From the sequence record PP627279.1: a stretch of DNA of 59,853 nt; one strand, given 5' to 3'. Position 1 is the stretch's first letter. Every line of letters begins with the position of its first letter. The notes below the pieces were generated by a model. The model was not told the origin of the DNA, searched no databases, and saw only the letters and a list, made by a program, of their open reading frames with translations. Positions 2,107 through 59,833 of the stretch are shown here, piece after piece. A program made the translations under genes and the position numbers. Source of the stretch: Escherichia phage KS_A8.

Positions 2107-3603
2107 ATGGGTATTGATGCAACTCACCCGCTATACGACAAGTGGAAGAATGCATGGATTAAGTGCAACGACTGCTATGAGGGTGAAGATAAAATTAAGG
2201 AAGAAGGTGTTAAATATCTACCGCCTTTAGCTTCCATGATTATTGATGGGATGAATAATCCTAATGATTTGGGCTTTCAACGTTGGCTTGCCTATCGTCT
2301 GCGTGCTAACTTCCCTGACGATTATTCAAGTGCGGTTACAAACAATCTAGGTCTGCTGCACCAGAAGCCTCCTACAATCCAGCTCCCCCCTGAAATGGAA
2401 TACATGCGGGATCTGTGTACTGCGGACGGTGAAGACATTATTGCTCTGCTACGTCGCATCAACGAAATGCAGTTAAAAAATGGGCGTTTGGGCCTGCTAC
2501 TGGACTTGCCTAAAGGTGAGGATGTAAATAACAGACCTTATATTAGCGTTTATGACGCTTTATCCATTATCAACTGGGATGATGGTAAAGATGAATTGGG
2601 CAATATCAACTTGAACATGGTTGTTCTGGATGAAAGTGGTCCTGTACGTGTCAATCAGTTTGACTGGAAAGAAGAGAAGCGTTATCGCGTTCTACAATTA
2701 GGTCCAATGGACACAGATGAAGTTGCAGGTGGAGCTGTCTACTCCCAACATCTGTTTATTAACAATACCAATTATGATGAAGGGCAAATGATTGCTCCTT
2801 ATTATAAAGGTAATACGCTGGATGAAATTCCTTTCCAGTTTGTCAATACAACAGATATTACCCCAGCACCGGAAGCGCCGCCATTGTTGGGTCTTGCTAA
2901 CATTTGTCTAAGCATGTACCGAAGTGATGCGGATTACCGCCAAAGCTTGCATATGCAGGGTCAGGACACCTTAGTCGTTGTTGGTGGTACTGGGGAGAAT
3001 GGGGATAAAGCCCCTCAACGCATCGGTCCTGGCGCTGTCATTAACGTTGCTATTGGTGGTGACGCTAAATATGTAGGTGTTAGCGGTGACGGTTTGTCCG
3101 AGCAACGTCTCGCACTTGCAGCGGATAAGCAAGAAGCCCAAATTAAAGCCGGGCAAATGGTAAACAATACCAAGAGTACGCAGGAATCGGGTGAAGCCAT
3201 GAAAACGCGTATTGCTGCGCGTACAGCTAGTCTGATTCGAATTGCGTATACTGGTGCGGCTGGTCTGGAAAACTTGCTGAAGGTTTGCGCTAAGTGGATG
3301 GGCGCTGATCCCGAGAAAGTTGTGGTTAAGCCTAATCTTGAATTCACCAAGAGCATGTTTAACGGTCAAGACTTTGTTCAAATTATCACTGCACGCAACC
3401 TTAAAGCTCCGATTAGCTTGCAGTCTATTCATGGCTGGCTTGTTGATCAGGGATTAACCACACTAAGCTTTGAAGAAGAAATGGCAATTCTTGAAGAAGA
3501 GCTTAAGAAGTGGCCTCTGCCTGATGATGCTAAAGCTGATTTAAACGCAGAGCAGCAAGTAAGCAAAGATCCTAAGGAAGACAACGCTTCCGATAAAGAA
3601 TAG
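2107..3603 (+). CDS. portal protein
   Basis: 498 aa, immediately after terL, acidic C-terminus; call from synteny and size. Confidence 0.7.
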   Translation: MGIDATHPLYDKWKNAWIKCNDCYEGEDKIKEEGVKYLPPLASMIIDGMNNPNDLGFQRWLAYRLRANFPDDYSSAVTNNLGLLHQKPPTIQLPPEMEYMRDLCTADGEDIIALLRRINEMQLKNGRLGLLLDLPKGEDVNNRPYISVYDALSIINWDDGKDELGNINLNMVVLDESGPVRVNQFDWKEEKRYRVLQLGPMDTDEVAGGAVYSQHLFINNTNYDEGQMIAPYYKGNTLDEIPFQFVNTTDITPAPEAPPLLGLANICLSMYRSDADYRQSLHMQGQDTLVVVGGTGENGDKAPQRIGPGAVINVAIGGDAKYVGVSGDGLSEQRLALAADKQEAQIKAGQMVNNTKSTQESGEAMKTRIAARTASLIRIAYTGAAGLENLLKVCAKWMGADPEKVVVKPNLEFTKSMFNGQDFVQIITARNLKAPISLQSIHGWLVDQGLTTLSFEEEMAILEEELKKWPLPDDAKADLNAEQQVSKDPKEDNASDKE

Positions 3604-3698
3604 TTGCAACTTCCAAGTTGATCGGTTTATATTAACGAACACGGGGCTGGGACGGCTCAGCTCCAAAAACGTCACACGGGTGACAACGGAGATAAGAA

Positions 3699-4571
3699 AT
3701 GAAAAAGAGTTCTGTAGCTATTAGTGTTGGTATGGCTTTAATTAATCCACGCGCTCGCGGTGAAGGTGATGTGGAACTGGAATACGAATATGCATCTGCG
3801 GAAGAGATCCCGGCAGAGTTTGCAACTCTTTACGCAGAGCAGGGCGGTAAATACGTTCTTGCAAAAGTTAAAGGTGTAGCCCCTGCTGATAGCGTTCGTC
3901 GTCTGGAAAGTGCGTTAGCTAAAGAACGTAACGACCATCGTCAGGTGAAGCAACAGATTAGCGCACTTGGGCGTCCGGTTGAAGAAGTCCTTGCGGACCT
4001 TGATCGTATCCCTCAACTGGAAGCTGCCGCTAACGGTAAAGGTACTCCGGAAGACATCGAAAAGATGGTTAAAGCCCGTCTTGCTCCGCTTGAGCGTCAA
4101 TTGCAAACTGTAGCAGCCGAACGCGATTCCGTTAAGCAGGAAATTGAAGGCTACCGCACTCGCGAAACTAAAGCGAAGATTAAAGACGCAGTTATTGCTG
4201 CTGCATCCGGTGCTAAGCTGCGTCCTTCTGCTATCGAAGATGCGGTGACTTATGCACAGTTGCAAATGACCGTCGACGAGAACGGCAATGTGGTTACGAA
4301 AGATGGGGCTGGTGTAACTCCATACCTAACCCCGGCGGATTGGCTTAACGAGATCCTCCCGAAACGTCCTCACTGGGTTGAAGGTTCTGCTGGTGGCGGT
4401 GCATCTGGTCCGGGCGCTGGCGGCCATCACGGTGAAGACCCATACAGTCACGACGGTTGGAACATCTCTAAGCAGATGAATCTCTGGAAAACTAATCAAT
4501 CTTTAGCTAAACGCTTGGCTGAAAAGAATGGCGTAGACCCGCTGAAGCCTGTACGTCCTGCTAAGAAATAA
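3699..4571 (+). CDS. head scaffolding/morphogenesis protein (putative)
   Basis: 290 aa, helix-rich with charged heptad-like segments, between portal and major capsid; RBS GGAGATAAG before ATG. Confidence 0.35.
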   Translation: MKKSSVAISVGMALINPRARGEGDVELEYEYASAEEIPAEFATLYAEQGGKYVLAKVKGVAPADSVRRLESALAKERNDHRQVKQQISALGRPVEEVLADLDRIPQLEAAANGKGTPEDIEKMVKARLAPLERQLQTVAAERDSVKQEIEGYRTRETKAKIKDAVIAAASGAKLRPSAIEDAVTYAQLQMTVDENGNVVTKDGAGVTPYLTPADWLNEILPKRPHWVEGSAGGGASGPGAGGHHGEDPYSHDGWNISKQMNLWKTNQSLAKRLAEKNGVDPLKPVRPAKK

Positions 4572-4693
4572 GTTGACATCCCGACGTCCCTGATGTTAAG
4601 TTTCAACACATCAGGGACACGGGTTCCTAAACAGCCTTCCACGGGGAAAGGCTACCAACAGTAAACAAATCAATCCTTTTCCTGGAGACAAGT

Positions 4694-5755
4694 ATGTCTA
4701 AATCTAAAATTATTCTGCCATTTGGTCGTGGTGAAACTGACCTGACTCGTTTGAAGGATGTCATTGTCCCTGAGATCTTCACTGGTTATGTGCAGACGCA
4801 GACCGCTGAACTTTCTGCTCTGATTCAATCCGGTGCGGTTGTAATGGACGAGCGTTTATCCGCTAACCTTGCTGGTGCAGGTCTGACTTTTAACGAGCCG
4901 TTCTATAACGACCTGAAAGATGAAGACGAAGATATCGCGGTTGATAAAGGCGATCCGTCCAAACCGTCTAACATCACTACCGGATCTGAAGTTCAGGTTC
5001 GTATGAGTCGTTCAAAATCCTGGGGTTCTGCGGATCTGGTATCAGCTTTGATTGGTAACGACCCAATGACCGCTATCGGTAACCGCGTGTCTGCGTGGTG
5101 GGTCCGCCGTCTGCAAGCTGCATACATCGCAACCTGGAAAGGTGTATTTGCTAATGCGAAGAAATCTCATAACGACGATTTGACTTTCGACATCTCTGGT
5201 TCTTCTTTTGTAAATAACCAGACCAACTTTACCGCGTCTAACTTCATCAACGCAACTGCAACGATGGGTGATGCTGCCCGCGGTCTGACTATGATTATGG
5301 TACACTCTACCGTTCGTAACCGTATGCGTCAGTTGAACCTGATCGACTTCATTCCAGATGCTCGCGGTGAAACTCAGTTTGAGTATTATCAGGGTCTGCG
5401 TATTATTGAAGACGACTCCATGCCACACGATCCGTCTACTGGTGTGTTTGAAAGCTGGCTGTTCGGCCCGGGCGCAACTGCAATGGGTGCTGGATCACCG
5501 AAAGTTCCGACCGCTGTGGTGCGTGACGAAGCCGCTAACCAAGGCGCTGGTGAAGAAGTTCTTCACAACCGTGTTGAATGGATTCTGCATCCGGTTGGCC
5601 ATGCTTGGGCTGCTGCTCAAACTGCTAAAGGTGGTCCGTCTAACGCTGCTACCACTAACAACCTGGCCCATGAAGATTCCTGGCGTCGTGCGTTCCCTGA
5701 GCGCAAGCAGCTTAAAGTTGCACGCCTGATCACTCGTGAGTATCAGGGTTCCTAA
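4694..5755 (+). CDS. major capsid protein
   Basis: 353 aa; position after the scaffold-like gene; followed by a strong intrinsic terminator, as expected for a highly expressed capsid gene. Confidence 0.7.
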   Translation: MSKSKIILPFGRGETDLTRLKDVIVPEIFTGYVQTQTAELSALIQSGAVVMDERLSANLAGAGLTFNEPFYNDLKDEDEDIAVDKGDPSKPSNITTGSEVQVRMSRSKSWGSADLVSALIGNDPMTAIGNRVSAWWVRRLQAAYIATWKGVFANAKKSHNDDLTFDISGSSFVNNQTNFTASNFINATATMGDAARGLTMIMVHSTVRNRMRQLNLIDFIPDARGETQFEYYQGLRIIEDDSMPHDPSTGVFESWLFGPGATAMGAGSPKVPTAVVRDEAANQGAGEEVLHNRVEWILHPVGHAWAAAQTAKGGPSNAATTNNLAHEDSWRRAFPERKQLKVARLITREYQGS

Positions 5756-7467: not shown

Positions 7468-7848
7468 ATGAGCTTTTCTTACGAGCAGCTAGTTGAAGCT
7501 GCAAAGCAAATGATCAACGATGCTGGTGTTAACTGTACCCTTGTTGTTATGGAGCAAGGGGAAGGTCAAGATGAATGGGACGATCCGAGCGTTGAAAAAC
7601 GATACCCATTCATTGGAGCTTTCTTTTCACCGAAGGAAAAGATGATTGGCGGCAGTCTTGTTTCTGCTGGTGAGCTGAAAGTGTTGACTTACCCAATGAC
7701 ACCTCCATTGACTCGCGATAAAGCAATGACTGCACGCATTGAGCGTGTGTCACCGGATGGGGAACTGGAAGTGTGGACAATAAATGAGTTTGTTGATACA
7801 CGACCAGCTAACGTTTCTGTTCTTTACACTTTTAAGGTGACGCGATAA
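7468..7848 (+). CDS. head-tail joining protein (putative)
   Basis: 126 aa, tightly packed in the neck gene series. Confidence 0.3.
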   Translation: MSFSYEQLVEAAKQMINDAGVNCTLVVMEQGEGQDEWDDPSVEKRYPFIGAFFSPKEKMIGGSLVSAGELKVLTYPMTPPLTRDKAMTARIERVSPDGELEVWTINEFVDTRPANVSVLYTFKVTR

Positions 7849-8255
7849 TGGGATTCGGGGCGGATATTCGACGTGCAAGTCAGAAGGTACTTGTTCAGAC
7901 AAGCGAGCAAGCCAAAAAAGTCGTTGTCAAGTTCACAGAGAATGTGATACAGGATACTCCTGTTAAGACCGGACGCACAAAAGGTGGTTGGCGGTCATCC
8001 ATTGGTGCGCCGTATGCAACGGAAACTATCCGCCTCGATCCTACTGGAGAGATGGCTAAAGCTGAAGCCCGAGTTGTCGCACGCCAACTACCTAATGATA
8101 AAGACTGGACTTTCTATTTTAGCAACCTGACACCATATGCTGGCAAACTGGAGTTCTTAGGTTGGTCGCAGCAAGCCCCGAACGGTATGGTTCGTATTAA
8201 CGTAGCGAAGCTTCCAATGTTGATACGTCAAGCTATAGCAGAAGGAAAACTATAA
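7848..8255 (+). CDS. neck/tail completion protein (putative)
   Basis: 135 aa, ATGA-type coupling with upstream gene; synteny only. Confidence 0.3.
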   Translation: MGFGADIRRASQKVLVQTSEQAKKVVVKFTENVIQDTPVKTGRTKGGWRSSIGAPYATETIRLDPTGEMAKAEARVVARQLPNDKDWTFYFSNLTPYAGKLEFLGWSQQAPNGMVRINVAKLPMLIRQAIAEGKL

Positions 8256-53661: not shown

Positions 53662-53901
53662 ATGCGTAGTTTCAAATGTGTAAGCGTAAACGATAATGCT
53701 AAGGCTAGTGCTAAGGGTCTGTTCACAGTAGGTAAAGTGTATGACTTCAACATGGAAAGTTATATACACATAACCCTCACGGGCGTAATGTTCGGCGACG
53801 TTGGTGCTGTACGCTGCGATTTAAACAAGTACACGGAAAAGGAATATGCCCTTATCAGCCGCTACACGGGCGAGCCGTTAGCTGTGTTCCATGCAGCTTA
53901 A
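53662..53901 (+). CDS. hypothetical protein
   Basis: Start set at MRSFK (RBS GGGGTAA); 79 aa. Confidence 0.3.
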   Translation: MRSFKCVSVNDNAKASAKGLFTVGKVYDFNMESYIHITLTGVMFGDVGAVRCDLNKYTEKEYALISRYTGEPLAVFHAA

Positions 53902-53928
53902 GCTATAACGCACACAGCGCCACGCTAG

Positions 53929-53967
53929 CGAGCTAATGCACAAAGGCAATGGTAATGCATTAGCTCG
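53929..53967. repeat. 12-bp perfect inverted repeat (stem-loop/operator candidate)
   Basis: CGAGCTAATGCA (53929-53940) and TGCATTAGCTCG (53956-53967) separated by 15 nt. Confidence 0.4.
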
Positions 53968-53978
53968 GGCGAAACAGG

Positions 53979-54050
53979 CGCACAGCGTCGCGCACAGCTC
54001 GCACAGCGCACACCGACCCACGCAGGCCCAGCCGCGCGACCCGACCCATC
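53979..54050. repeat. GC-rich CGCACAGC and CGACCC direct repeats
   Basis: CGCACAGC at 53979, 53991 and 54000, followed by CGACCCA, CGACCCG, ACCCATCC. Confidence 0.35.
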
Positions 54051-54335
54051 CTTTTCCAGGTACTTGGATCGCTGGGGCGTGCCCTGTCCATCCTGATAGT
54101 AAGTGCTTGTCTAAATCTCACCCATCACTTTACTATCCACCTACATCCATGACCCCCCACCTACCTTCTTTTTGAATATATTGCGCTCATCCTTTCTAAA
54201 TATATGGATTTTGGTAGTAAATCCTGAGTCGTCAACGTATAATTCGTCTTGTAGCTGCTCCATAGCTACCATCTTTAAGCGGATGCAACCAATTTCTATC
54301 AATTCTTACCAGTTTTAGAGCATCAAGGAGGTATT

Positions 54336-56048: not shown

Positions 56049-56441
56049 ATGCTATTAGTCGTCACCGGAGGTCGAGATTTTAAGCATGTGGAGTATATTT
56101 ATGCTCAATTGGATAAGCTGCATATGCAAAGAAGGATAACCACACTTCGCCACGGTGACGCTGACGGTGTTGACCGCATTTGCGCACAGTGGGCAGAGCG
56201 CAACGGTATTAAGACAGAAGCGTTCCCTGCCCCGTGGGACAATCTTTCCTTACCAAATACCAAGATACGGTATAACGCTAAGGGTGCTTATAATGCACAA
56301 GCTGGCGCTTACCGCAATCAATTAATGCTGGATACTGATCCTAAACCAGATCACGCTATTGTGTTTCCTGGCGGAGCTGGTACTATGGATATGTACAGAC
56401 GGATTAAAGCATCCGGTATCCCTTACACATTAGCGGAGTAA
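56049..56441 (+). CDS. SLOG/LOG-family Rossmann-fold protein (DprA/LOG-like, putative)
   Basis: 130 aa; N-terminal VVTGGRDF and C-terminal VFPGGAGTMDM resemble the LOG-family PGGxGT motif. Confidence 0.35.
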   Translation: MLLVVTGGRDFKHVEYIYAQLDKLHMQRRITTLRHGDADGVDRICAQWAERNGIKTEAFPAPWDNLSLPNTKIRYNAKGAYNAQAGAYRNQLMLDTDPKPDHAIVFPGGAGTMDMYRRIKASGIPYTLAE

Positions 56442-56444
56442 ATA

Positions 56445-56915
56445 ATGGCTGACGTTAAAACTATTGTTGATGCAATGGACGAATCCAAAGACTGCCAACT
56501 GAAGAAGTCGTTTGAAGTAAAACAGGTTACAGAGACTCAGTTAGTCTGTAATTTTGCGCGTTATTGTGGACTGGGGCGCGGGAAAGACTGGAACGGGCTT
56601 ATTGTTATGCCCACATCACAGATCCTCGTTTACGTCCGCAATATTGTAGAAGATCTTTTGCGTCTTCAAATAGATATCGGTGATGTAGAAATTAATATGA
56701 CCGCGAGCTCTACCATTGTGGTTAAATGGCAGTCGGGCGAGACACTGCGTTTGGAAGCGTGCCATTGTGCTAAGAGCTTGCACCACCTGCGAGGCTGTCA
56801 TTACCAGTTCGTTGGGTTTGTACATCCGCAAGGGTTAAGCGAGCGTACGGCGCTTGTAGCGCGTTTGCTGCTGCGTCCTTATAATAACGAGCCGGAAGTT
56901 ATATACGAGGCATAA
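56445..56915 (+). CDS. hypothetical protein
   Basis: 156 aa with several Cys/His. Confidence 0.3.
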   Translation: MADVKTIVDAMDESKDCQLKKSFEVKQVTETQLVCNFARYCGLGRGKDWNGLIVMPTSQILVYVRNIVEDLLRLQIDIGDVEINMTASSTIVVKWQSGETLRLEACHCAKSLHHLRGCHYQFVGFVHPQGLSERTALVARLLLRPYNNEPEVIYEA

Positions 56916-56916
56916 A

Positions 56917-57342
56917 ATGTCAGTAAATTTTGTCAAACAGCCAACTTTAAATACATGCGTTTCTGCGTGTTTGGCAATGATCCTTAATAAACCTGTTGAG
57001 AAGGTTATTGAGGAATTTCATAGTCGTTATTATAACAACTGGGAGATCACTATCAGCGAATATTTGACTAAAAACGGCGTCCAGCATCATTGTTCAGAAG
57101 GTGGTGGGCGTGAAACTTTGCATATGGGAGGTTTGTTCCTGTGCACGGTGCCAAGTCTTAATATTCCTGGCGCATTGCACCAGATTGTGATTGATATGAC
57201 GGATCACAAGTTTATTGTGCATGATCCAATTAAAGGATGGGAAGGTAAAAAGTTCTATGTTGGTCCGGATCAAGATCCTGAAGAGCCTGGAGCTTTTATC
57301 ATTCATACTTGGGTCAAAGACGTTGAAATCCTGCCTTATTAA
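56917..57342 (+). CDS. papain-like cysteine peptidase (C39-like, putative)
   Basis: 141 aa; QPTLNTCVSACLAMIL fits the C39 Q...C..A.LAMI pattern; downstream HKFIVHDP histidine motif. Confidence 0.45.
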   Translation: MSVNFVKQPTLNTCVSACLAMILNKPVEKVIEEFHSRYYNNWEITISEYLTKNGVQHHCSEGGGRETLHMGGLFLCTVPSLNIPGALHQIVIDMTDHKFIVHDPIKGWEGKKFYVGPDQDPEEPGAFIIHTWVKDVEILPY

Positions 57343-57404
57343 TTTTCTTGCTATCACATAACCCTTCATTGTATTGTGTACCCATCGAATAAGAGGGGTA
57401 CACA

Positions 57405-57590
57405 ATGACCAAACTATACGCCGGATTGTTTTTATTTGCGACGTTGATGTTCGCTGGGCTTTATACCTATACAGTAGTCGAACAACCTTCCACGGTTATC
57501 CGAATCTTTGCAAGTACAGGGCTTTGCATCTGTCTTATTCTATTTGTTTTATGCATTGTTATTATCCAAGACCAAAGGAAAGTTAAATGA
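57405..57590 (+). CDS. small two-helix membrane protein
   Basis: 61 aa, two hydrophobic helices. Confidence 0.3.
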   Translation: MTKLYAGLFLFATLMFAGLYTYTVVEQPSTVIRIFASTGLCICLILFVLCIVIIQDQRKVK

Positions 57591-58051
57591 CCACAATTGC
57601 GTTTGATGGAAAAGTATTAGCTGCGGACCGTGGCGTTATGCGCGGGGAAGCTGTGACTGCTTATAAGAAAGTTCATAGCGTGAATGGACATCGTGGACGG
57701 TTTTTACTGGGCTTGTGCGGTTTGACAGCATTTACCGATCAGGTGTTGCGTTATTTTAATAGCGCGGAACCTGTTAAGTTCCCTGATATTAAACTTTACA
57801 GCAAAGATGATGATTACGGGCAAACTTGCGGTCTTGCTATCACTCCGGAAGGTACTTGCCATTTTATTTATAATGATGGTACTTTGAGCGAGCCCATGCT
57901 GGATGGATGGGGATCTGAGGGTAGCGGTTGTGTGTTTGCCGCTGGTGCATTAGCCGCTGGTGCAAGCGCAAGCGAAGCCATTGAGCTGGCAATTAAACAC
58001 ACCACATGCGCATTCCTGGGAGTTGATACAATATCATTTGAGGGTTTTTAA
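57587..58051 (+). CDS. Ntn-hydrolase fold protein, HslV/proteasome beta-like (putative)
   Basis: 154 aa; begins MTTIAFDGK (Thr at position 2 as potential N-terminal nucleophile); Gly-rich GSEGSGCVFAAGALAAGAS resembles the HslV GSGG segment (from memory). Confidence 0.3.
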   Translation: MTTIAFDGKVLAADRGVMRGEAVTAYKKVHSVNGHRGRFLLGLCGLTAFTDQVLRYFNSAEPVKFPDIKLYSKDDDYGQTCGLAITPEGTCHFIYNDGTLSEPMLDGWGSEGSGCVFAAGALAAGASASEAIELAIKHTTCAFLGVDTISFEGF

Positions 58052-58312
58052 ATGACTACATTCAGTCACCTGATCCCACCTGCTTATCATAGTAAGGTAG
58101 TTGACCACGGGACGCATGTTGTAATTGGTGGCGAAATCTTTATCACAGATAACGAGGAAATCGCCATTGCAATTATTGACAGCACTCAGCATGACTTTAT
58201 GGTTATCCTGCAACACGAACCAGATAACTTCACTTTTTACTCCAGCTACGGGGTCGATAAAGGTGGAAAAAGCCTTGTTAGCTGGTACATTAGCGAGTGG
58301 TTTGACGGGTAA
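58052..58312 (+). CDS. hypothetical protein
   Basis: 86-aa ORF. Confidence 0.3.
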   Translation: MTTFSHLIPPAYHSKVVDHGTHVVIGGEIFITDNEEIAIAIIDSTQHDFMVILQHEPDNFTFYSSYGVDKGGKSLVSWYISEWFDG

Positions 58313-58394: not shown

Positions 58395-58832
58395 ATGGCA
58401 CTTCAACCTCGTGGTATTCGTAATAACAATCCAGGCAATATTCGCTGGGGTGATAATTGGCAGGGCTTAGTTCCTGCTGATAAGCGAACCGATAAATCTT
58501 TTGCTCAATTCACGCAACCGATTTACGGCATTCGTGCGCTAGCGAAAATCCTGACAAACTACACCAAACGTGAAGGCTTGCCCAATGTGGGTAAGAAAAA
58601 CATCGACACTGTACGTGAAATTATCGCTCGCTGGGCACCGCCTAACGAAAACGATACGGAAGCGTATATTCGCTCTGTTGCCAAAGCAATTGGTGTTCAA
58701 CCTAACGATCCAATTAATGTCTTCGACAAGGCAATTATGTCAGGATTGGTGAAAGCAATCATTCGTCATGAAAATGGCATGATGCCCTATACCGATGACG
58801 TAATTAACCGCGCTATTGCAATGGTACTTTAA
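58395..58832 (+). CDS. conserved hypothetical protein, candidate endolysin by position
   Basis: Start set at ATG 58395 (RBS GGAGGAA); 145 aa with RGIRNNNPGNIRWG motif; directly upstream of holin and spanins. No catalytic motif recognised. Confidence 0.3.
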   Translation: MALQPRGIRNNNPGNIRWGDNWQGLVPADKRTDKSFAQFTQPIYGIRALAKILTNYTKREGLPNVGKKNIDTVREIIARWAPPNENDTEAYIRSVAKAIGVQPNDPINVFDKAIMSGLVKAIIRHENGMMPYTDDVINRAIAMVL

Positions 58833-58868
58833 CTGACGGGGCGTTAGCCCCTTTTATTTGGAGGGAAC

Positions 58869-59213
58869 ATGTTCAATTCACCCAACGAACATTGGGCAGT
58901 TCTAGCGGGGTTTGCGTTTATCTCCCTCATTGGGGGAGCTCTCGGTTATGTCATGCGTACAATAGACGCTGGTAAGAAAGTACGGGCAAGTATTGCGTTT
59001 CTTGAAGGCTTATCCGCCGCTTTCTTTGGCGTTATAATGTATGCGATCTACAGGGAGTTTAACATCAGCCTTTGGTTCGCTTTTGGCCTTGCTGGCCTAT
59101 TTGCTTGGGCAGGTTCACGTGCTACGCTAAAAGCCCTAACGTCGCTTATAGCTTCACGGACAGGGATCAAACTCGATTCAGGGGACTGCAAACATGAAAA
59201 CGATTCTAAATAA
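58869..59213 (+). CDS. holin (putative)
   Basis: 114 aa with three hydrophobic helices and charged C-terminus; immediately upstream of Rz/Rz1. Confidence 0.5.
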   Translation: MFNSPNEHWAVLAGFAFISLIGGALGYVMRTIDAGKKVRASIAFLEGLSAAFFGVIMYAIYREFNISLWFAFGLAGLFAWAGSRATLKALTSLIASRTGIKLDSGDCKHENDSK

Positions 59214-59670
59214 CTTCTTCGGTTTTATAAAAACTAAACCGCGTCTGTTTATCGAGTATTTGATGATCGGCGCGGTTGTGTTTTTATGCGGGGTGGCTGC
59301 ATACTTGTGGTCACAGAACGAGCTCAGCAAAACTAATTTAAATCATGCTGAGCAAAGACTAACCGTTGTAGAACGGGACAATGCAAAGCTGGGCGAAGCT
59401 GTTGTATTTCTTGCATCCCAACGGGAGAAGGATACTGAATCCTATCGAAAATTGGCTTCAGCAATTGAAAGTGAGCAACATAACCACAGGTTGCTTCAGG
59501 ACAAATTAAAAGCACTGGAGAAAAGCAATGCCGACGTCAAAGCTTATCTTAATGAGCGTGTTCCTGATGATTTGCGCAGGCTGCTCGACGGAGATACAAC
59601 CTCCACCACCGCCGCAGATAGTGAAGATAAAACTTCCGGCCCATCTGTTGGTAGAATGTCGGGAAGTTGA
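59194..59670 (+). CDS. Rz: i-spanin (Rz-like)
   Basis: 158 aa; N-terminal transmembrane helix, coiled-coil periplasmic domain; contains the Rz1 start in another frame. Confidence 0.6.
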   Translation: MKTILNNFFGFIKTKPRLFIEYLMIGAVVFLCGVAAYLWSQNELSKTNLNHAEQRLTVVERDNAKLGEAVVFLASQREKDTESYRKLASAIESEQHNHRLLQDKLKALEKSNADVKAYLNERVPDDLRRLLDGDTTSTTAADSEDKTSGPSVGRMSGS

Positions 59671-59833
59671 TAAATATCCTTTGGTTTATACAAGGGACAT
59701 TATCCAACGTTTGCAGGATACAGAAACAGCTCTGACTGAATGTAAACTGAGGGTTAAGGAAATCATACGCTATGAAGCTGAAAATGTTTCGCTTGATTTT
59801 GTAGGATCAAGCAATTATATTCAGCCTAAATAG
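59528..59833 (+). CDS. Rz1: o-spanin (Rz1-like lipoprotein)
   Basis: Signal peptide ending in lipobox-like ICAGC followed by proline-rich STEIQPPPPPQ; overlaps the Rz 3' end. Confidence 0.55.
   Translation: MPTSKLILMSVFLMICAGCSTEIQPPPPPQIVKIKLPAHLLVECREVDKYPLVYTRDIIQRLQDTETALTECKLRVKEIIRYEAENVSLDFVGSSNYIQPK

Follow-up and report, generated by a model that had tools for sequence, protein, structure and literature searches.

Escherichia phage KS_A8 encodes a predicted stand-alone C39-like peptidase and a predicted PPH-type mini-proteasome subunit upstream of its lysis genes

Cpe1 and StbD-CT are C39 peptidase toxins, effectors of the type VI secretion system (T6SS) and of contact-dependent inhibition (CDI), that cleave GyrB and ParE at HAGG↓K; they are a precedent for a C39 domain that cuts cytoplasmic host proteins at Gly-Gly. 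Other C39 domains belong to the PCAT/AMS exporters, such as ComA, PCAT1 and LahT. Among relatives of the proteasome beta subunit, HslV (ClpQ, T1B) is partnered by HslU, and a separate clade, PPH, has so far been described bioinformatically only (PMC8665760). Here, we describe two neighboring genes of Escherichia phage KS_A8, open reading frame (ORF) A and ORF C, whose products resemble the C39 domains and the PPH proteins, respectively. The window analysed is the whole 59,853-nucleotide stretch of record PP627279.1. The two products are probably separate, catalytically competent, cytoplasmic accessory peptidases, and neither lysis enzymes nor canonical head-maturation proteases.

A sequence-only reading of the window had placed peptidase-like genes at 56917–57342 and 57587–58051, on either side of a two-helix membrane protein. 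Both ORFs exist at these coordinates, on the plus strand, and encode products of 141 (ORF A) and 154 (ORF C) amino acids. The protein between them, ORF B (57405–57590, plus strand, 61 amino acids, phrog_22841), indeed carries two hydrophobic segments that hydropathy analysis reads as helices, and its stop codon overlaps the start codon of ORF C in the tetranucleotide ATGA. The 2.5 kb around the peptidase genes are 96–98% identical to Escherichia phages Seurat and CAjan, the SLUR phages and several BASEL phages (Queuovirinae, Seuratvirus), and the window as a whole is an entire genome of this genus, ~98% identical to Seurat and CAjan.

ORF A has the minimal papain-like fold of a C39 domain, with a predicted catalytic set composed of Gln8 (oxyanion), Cys14, His88 and Asp103, and Cys14 is located at the N-terminus of a helix formed by residues 14–23. 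The C39-type motif noticed at first reading proved genuine in that the Gln-x5-Cys signature and the downstream His are conserved, though the match to the Pfam C39 model (PF03412) scores 14.3 bits against a cutoff of 22 and covers residues 3–25 only. Across 87 diverse family members, Cys14, His88, Asp103 and Pro104 are invariant, Cys18 is nearly so, and Gln8 is present in at least 90%; in the viral clusters, the catalytic residues are retained in 32–33 of 33. The spacings are 74 residues from Cys to His and 15 from His to Asp, close to the 75 and 17 separating Cys183, His258 and Asp275 in StbD-CT. Because the Gln-x5-Cys motif and these spacings fit C39, we assign ORF A to the C39-like peptidases of clan CA. 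Its structural matches include PeiR (score 10.0), a Bacillus "C39-like" protein (9.7), Staphopain and the Citrobacter StbD-CT toxin (8.7), and cytoplasmic C39 domains are the best among them. Searches of PDB sequences with ORF A profiles returned nothing significant, LahT aligning in register only at an E value of 1.4, and a fold search of BFVD returned almost solely uncharacterised phage proteins.

The family to which ORF A belongs is large. A profile search of 1.84 billion cluster representatives retrieved 825 relatives at E ≤ 1e-3, of which 503 reach E ≤ 1e-10, so that the family comprises at least 825 clusters (50% identity). Of the 87 diverse members, only 7 match Pfam C39 at E ≤ 0.01 (best E 2.4e-6), and the other 80 do not. 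PHROGs holds the family as phrog_4049, function unknown, and in the GenBank records listed the gene is nearly always hypothetical, with one Nonagvirus record naming a "papain-like cysteine protease". The best 150 relatives are mostly free-standing proteins of ~135–160 amino acids; longer ones show traces of YunG-like and zinc-ribbon domains only, which are probably gene-call fusions. No relative was confirmed in a scan of bacterial genomes with the A1 patterns, the A3 alignment being too diverse to yield a pattern. In contrast to the C39 domains of ComA, PCAT1 and LahT, ORF A is free-standing, phage-encoded and without an ABC transporter, and no transporter is annotated in the genome. With two hallmarks of C39 missing, a score above the Pfam threshold and fusion to a transporter, we prefer to regard ORF A as a phage family in its own right, a new variant of the C39-like peptidases that is specific to phages. 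A search for a double-glycine leader substrate found no conserved Gly-Gly candidate, and the Gly-Gly sites in the portal, scaffold and capsid proteins were uninformative.

The genomic settings of the homologs vary. In Ackermannviridae, the gene lies between those for the phage topoisomerase II subunits; in Vibrio phage VP2, it is part of the early region; in Vequintavirinae and Samunavirus, it is found within arrays of small genes of unknown function; and in lambdoid-like contigs, it is immediately upstream of ninB. Location next to lysis genes is limited to Queuovirinae-like phages.

ORF C had been read as HslV-like on account of its MTTI start and Gly-rich segment. At the level of the fold this holds: the protein has the N-terminal nucleophile (Ntn) hydrolase fold of the proteasome beta subunit, the A2 profile matches HslV at E 2.8e-9, and in PHROGs the protein falls into phrog_1040, "peptidase HslV family" (E 5.7e-32), a label shared by RefSeq. 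The closer assignment does not, as ORF C fails the curated HslV and proteasome models, scoring 15.4 bits against Pfam Proteasome (PF00227, cutoff 22.4) and giving no match to the NCBIfam HslV model at E ≤ 1, and it belongs to the PPH clade. The protein starts MTTIAFDG and has no propeptide, and Thr2 is predicted to become Thr1 upon removal of Met; all 21 relatives from a word-based search, which used no start-motif filter, likewise begin Met-Thr. Within the viral clusters, Asp14 and Lys28 are conserved in 64 of 64, Gly45 in 63 of 64, and Gly112 and Gly114 in 64 of 64. Thr2 is also present in all 64, but this set was retrieved with an MT-containing pattern, and the count is hence not independent. 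Further conservation is seen in the Gly112-Ser113-Gly114 segment and at Asp147. Both products combine a peptidase fold with conserved catalytic residues (C14/H88/D103 in ORF A; D14/K28/G45 in ORF C), and the peptidase proposal of the sequence-only reading thus withstands the two findings that would have refuted it, unrelated folds or unconserved catalytic residues.

Secondary structure assignment by DSSP on the ORF C model shows one long helix (residues 47–58) followed by coil up to a strand at 80–85, with helix H2 absent; helices at 115–123 and 128–137 follow, and the chain ends after a strand at 146–150, with the C-terminal S12/H5 elements absent. The absence of helix H2 and of S12/H5 is a PPH feature as defined in PMC8665760. 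ORF C resembles the PPH proteins in being compact (154 amino acids compared with ~140), in its Met-Thr start without a propeptide, in conserving the equivalents of Thr1, Asp17, Lys33 and Gly47, in missing H2 and S12/H5, and in occurring in tailed phages of Proteobacteria. It differs from HslV in being ~20 residues shorter, in lacking H2 and in falling below the curated thresholds. No gene for an HslU-like or other AAA+ ATPase is annotated in bases 1–50,000 of CAjan or in the right arm of Seurat beside PPH. By these features, ORF C is a member of the known PPH family, separate from HslV; the assignment follows the described features of the clade rather than clustering with its reference, WP_042125023.1.

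Both peptidase genes had been described as far from the capsid genes, which turns out to be an artefact of linearisation: PP627279.1 starts at terS and shares its coordinates with CAjan, and is therefore a whole genome opened at the packaging genes. In the SLUR75 assembly, 184 bp separate the end of the lysis cassette from terS, and terL and portal come next, all on the same strand; ORF C therefore ends ~1.8 kb before terS. The head module (2107–5755, plus strand) encodes a portal (DUF4055, phrog_145), a scaffold (phrog_206) and a major head protein (phrog_247). As to the suggestion that neither product is a standard morphogenesis protease, neither matches a prohead-protease family (S78, U9/U35, S49 or ClpP-type) and neither gene lies between portal and capsid, but no canonical prohead protease is recognisable anywhere in the annotated genome either. 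Packaging genes also surround PPH elsewhere. In at least 36 of 64 PPH clusters from IMG/VR, terL and/or portal lie within 4 kb (p ~1e-7 in a rough binomial test against a 25% expectation). Overlapping stop and start codons join terL to a following PPH gene in L105, L114, L117 and L149, and portal to PPH in L093 and L136. In lambdoid-like contigs, Rz and terS flank the PPH gene, and the sampled head modules beside PPH are all of the scaffold type with no canonical protease recognised. This packaging-gene context and the scaffold-type heads with no recognisable protease fit a late-expressed protein and are compatible with a role in the head. The placement of PPH by terL, portal and terS is not mentioned in the retrieved passages of PMC8665760, and our literature search found no follow-up on PPH.

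In five unrelated IMG/VR contigs (L089, L105, L109, L114 and L117), PPH lies between terL and portal, and beside it is a gene for ~140–155 amino acids that matches phrog_10057, labelled DNA methyltransferase. The two genes look like an accessory islet inside the packaging module.

The mechanism that we favor treats the two products as separate enzymes that often travel together, most members of either family occurring without the other. ORF C would be a PPH-type mini-proteasome subunit whose initiator Met is removed by the host methionine aminopeptidase. E. coli HslV also starts MTTI and loses its initiator Met to methionine aminopeptidase. Loss of the Met would expose the ORF C Thr, which would then act as N-terminal nucleophile with help from Asp14, Lys28 and the oxyanion position at Gly45; by analogy with HslV and BPH, the subunits may form stacked rings enclosing a chamber in which polypeptides are degraded. 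The gene appears to belong to a late, same-strand train that runs into lysis, terS, terL and portal, an arrangement that PPH genes also show in many phages unrelated to this one. For ORF A, we propose a minimal free-standing cysteine endopeptidase of the C39-like type, with Gln8, Cys14, His88 and Asp103 as its active site. If it behaves as other members of C39 do, it most probably cleaves an intracellular protein once, in a sequence-specific manner, at a site of the Gly-Gly type. The substrate is more likely to come from the host than from the phage, since elsewhere the homologs are encoded in regions for early functions, host takeover or replication.

Several points weigh against treating the products as two separate active enzymes. 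The single sequences of ORF A and ORF C both fall under curated Pfam thresholds. Promoter and terminator scans perform at chance level, except for a hairpin after the endolysin gene, and the case for placing the peptidase genes in one transcription unit is weak. In addition, the two families co-occur far above expectation for two rare families, albeit in few related architectures, and this may mean that ORF A and PPH cooperate rather than act separately. PPH is found within 6 kb of ORF A in 7 of 33 ORF A clusters, always downstream and on the same strand; the two genes overlap in L029, L037, L040 and L041, are adjacent in Providencia phage PSTCR4 and Nonagvirus (26–36% identity), and lie 3–5 kb apart in lambdoid-like contigs. 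They could then serve one pathway, for example clipping followed by degradation, as with a deubiquitinase and the proteasome, with a defence protein of the host or a ubiquitin-like conjugate as a conceivable target. We consider such a module improbable, as no PPH gene lies within 6 kb of ORF A in 26 of the 33 clusters, ORF A accompanies PPH in Seurat-like loci only among the 64 PPH clusters, and the lineages with both are few and related. Moreover, in lambdoid-like contigs ORF A precedes ninB and PPH follows the lysis genes, which by analogy with lambda puts them in different expression classes; PADLOC defence models matched none of six local proteins, and a preprint on the Bil system yielded no link to Queuovirinae, anti-Bil or anti-ubiquitin-like activity. 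The proximity to the packaging genes raises another option, that PPH, possibly with ORF A, replaces the prohead protease and trims or degrades the scaffold or another head protein. The lack of a canonical prohead protease in the genome and in the sampled PPH head modules, the translational coupling of PPH to terL or portal in several unrelated contigs, and its same-strand position 1.8 kb upstream of terS in Seuratvirus all speak for this role. Scaffold-type heads, for example those of P22 and SPP1, need no protease, however, and the position of PPH varies (before terS, in the terL–portal gap or after portal) in a manner typical of accessory cargo, with the site shared with the phrog_10057 gene in several contigs. 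ORF A homologs sit in early regions of other phages, and the main text of the virion proteomics study of Pantoea phage Vid5 (apparently L058, which has both genes) names neither protein. On balance we regard a head role as doubtful.

Action at the cell wall was raised by the sequence-only reading, which suggested that one product may be an unconventional peptidoglycan hydrolase; this suggestion did not survive. Neither ORF A nor ORF C has a signal peptide, signal-arrest-release (SAR) sequence, transmembrane segment or hydrophobic N-terminus by hydropathy. Downstream, on the plus strand, lie genes for a soluble endolysin (58395–58832), a LydA-type holin (58869–59213) and an Rz-like i-spanin (59194–59670), each supported by PHROG and Pfam matches and the Seurat annotation, together with a candidate o-spanin, an embedded lipoprotein (59528–59833) identified by hydropathy and a candidate lipobox, MICAG↓C, read in the sequence. 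The complete endolysin, holin and spanin cassette argues against a lytic role for either product, and we rejected a peptidoglycan hydrolase on these two grounds and because the ORF A homologs elsewhere, in early or replication regions, are not lysis-linked. The pseudomurein endoisopeptidases PeiW, PeiP and PeiR (C71) come from archaeal viruses, are lytic and carry wall-binding repeats. An accessory lysis function for ORF A, as a wall endopeptidase or isopeptidase like these or like NlpC/P60 and CHAP lysins, is highly improbable: ORF A has no wall-binding repeats, its host has no pseudomurein, and Pfam, PHROG and NCBIfam gave it no match to a peptidoglycan hydrolase family or wall-binding domain. 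Its closest structural counterparts are cytoplasmic, the homologs from Ackermannviridae, Vequintavirinae, Samunavirus, VP2-like and lambdoid-like phages do not neighbor lysis genes, and among the contigs examined only the Queuovirinae-like and lambdoid-like ones have lysis-linked homologs. An intracellular target has been described for the toxins Cpe1 and StbD-CT, and ORF A might be their phage counterpart, cutting the HAGG↓K motif in the ATP lid of GyrB and ParE; host DNA replication and segregation would then be crippled. The precedent of the toxins, the Ackermannviridae homolog between phage topoisomerase II genes, and the sequence of the Ag3 topoisomerase II, which reads LYAGSNF at that site and has no Gly-Gly, together suggest that the C39-like peptidases of phages may inactivate type II topoisomerases of the host. 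The case is circumstantial and the general proposal is unlikely, as is its application to ORF A: the synteny is seen in one family only and is the sole tie of ORF A to topoisomerases, ORF A has no detectable sequence similarity to Cpe1 or StbD-CT, and no topoisomerase is annotated in Seuratvirus itself. Unlike the toxins, ORF A also lacks a T6SS or CDI delivery domain and a recognisable immunity gene, the downstream ORF B being Seuratvirus-specific. The Cpe1 and StbD-CT papers were found to make no mention of phage homologs. A bolder combination is rather unlikely. In it, ORF A would belong to an extensive and so far unnoticed family of free-standing phage C39 enzymes that achieve from within the cell what Cpe1 and StbD-CT achieve from outside, cleaving host GyrB and ParE at the Gly-Gly of the ATP lid and thereby halting host DNA metabolism; phages such as Ackermannviridae would keep the gene between the subunit genes of their own topoisomerase II, which has no such Gly-Gly. 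Separately, PPH would act as a late mini-proteasome linked to the terminase–portal module of phages whose heads have no conventional maturation protease.

Taken as two separate cytoplasmic peptidases, ORF A and ORF C bear on phage biology in several ways. The complete active sites predicted for both suggest that phages put proteolysis inside the cell to uses other than head maturation. Substrates of ORF C would provide the first function for PPH, and the ORF A family is carried by well-studied groups, namely the BASEL Queuovirinae, Ackermannviridae, Vequintavirinae and Vibrio cholerae podophages; our searches of the Seuratvirus, BASEL and Avs2 papers found nothing on these peptidase genes. The substrates could reveal a new route of host takeover or counter-defence, and if the enzymes are merely ordinary accessory proteases, the assignments would still improve the annotation of hundreds of phage genomes.

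The genes around the peptidases are tightly packed. Directly upstream of ORF A, a gene at 56445–56915 (plus strand) encodes a six-cysteine protein of 156 amino acids (phrog_25149) and stops 1 base before the ORF A start, the two being translationally coupled. Phmmer found a relative of this protein in the Nonagvirus ESCO3 locus; a DpdG-like match was non-significant (E 0.022). Two genes upstream of ORF A, the product of 56049–56441 (plus strand, 130 amino acids) belongs to the YspA/cpYpsA-related SLOG family (Pfam PF10686, E 2.1e-18), is labelled "GTP-binding domain" or "phosphoribosyl transferase" depending on the record, and has phmmer relatives also in the loci of L058 and L115. Between ORF A and ORF B, a hairpin at 57372–57407 (plus strand) with a 12-bp stem and a short inner stem (ΔG −20.1 kcal/mol, z −3.45 compared with shuffles) masks the Shine-Dalgarno sequence AAGAGGGG and ends at the ORF B AUG, with no U-run after it; it may limit translation of ORF B and, via coupling, of ORF C. 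Phmmer matches to ORF B are confined to Seurat-like loci, and ORF B was rejected as a conserved partner of either peptidase.

The start codon of ORF D (58052–58312, plus strand, 86 amino acids, acidic, phrog_23528) abuts the stop codon of ORF C (TAAATG), and ORF D homologs also follow PPH in two other Queuovirinae-like contigs, L011 and L029. ORF D was considered as a double-glycine substrate of ORF A and rejected, since the L011 and L029 homologs do not conserve its Gly-Gly. In the contig of Escherichia phage slur01 (L002), an additional paralog resembling ORF D (7525–7872) lies between ORF D and the endolysin gene, and the two proteins have in common the motif ...F/ITD.EE.AIAIIDS... Some Seuratviruses carry this paralog, which may account for insertions of ~200–480 bp in several related genomes.

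A search of NCBIfam gave no meaningful match, and an Rfam scan of the whole window found no family, including for an apparently non-coding stretch of ~440 bp (~53890–54330) between two plus-strand gene blocks, which has a G+C-rich start with repeated GCGCACAGC-like motifs and an A+T-rich end. Between the endolysin and holin genes, a terminator-like hairpin (58838–58851, plus strand; GGGGC-GTTA-GCCCC followed by a T-run) coincides with a terminator annotated in Seurat, and the peptidase genes and the endolysin gene may therefore share a transcript that ends before the holin gene.
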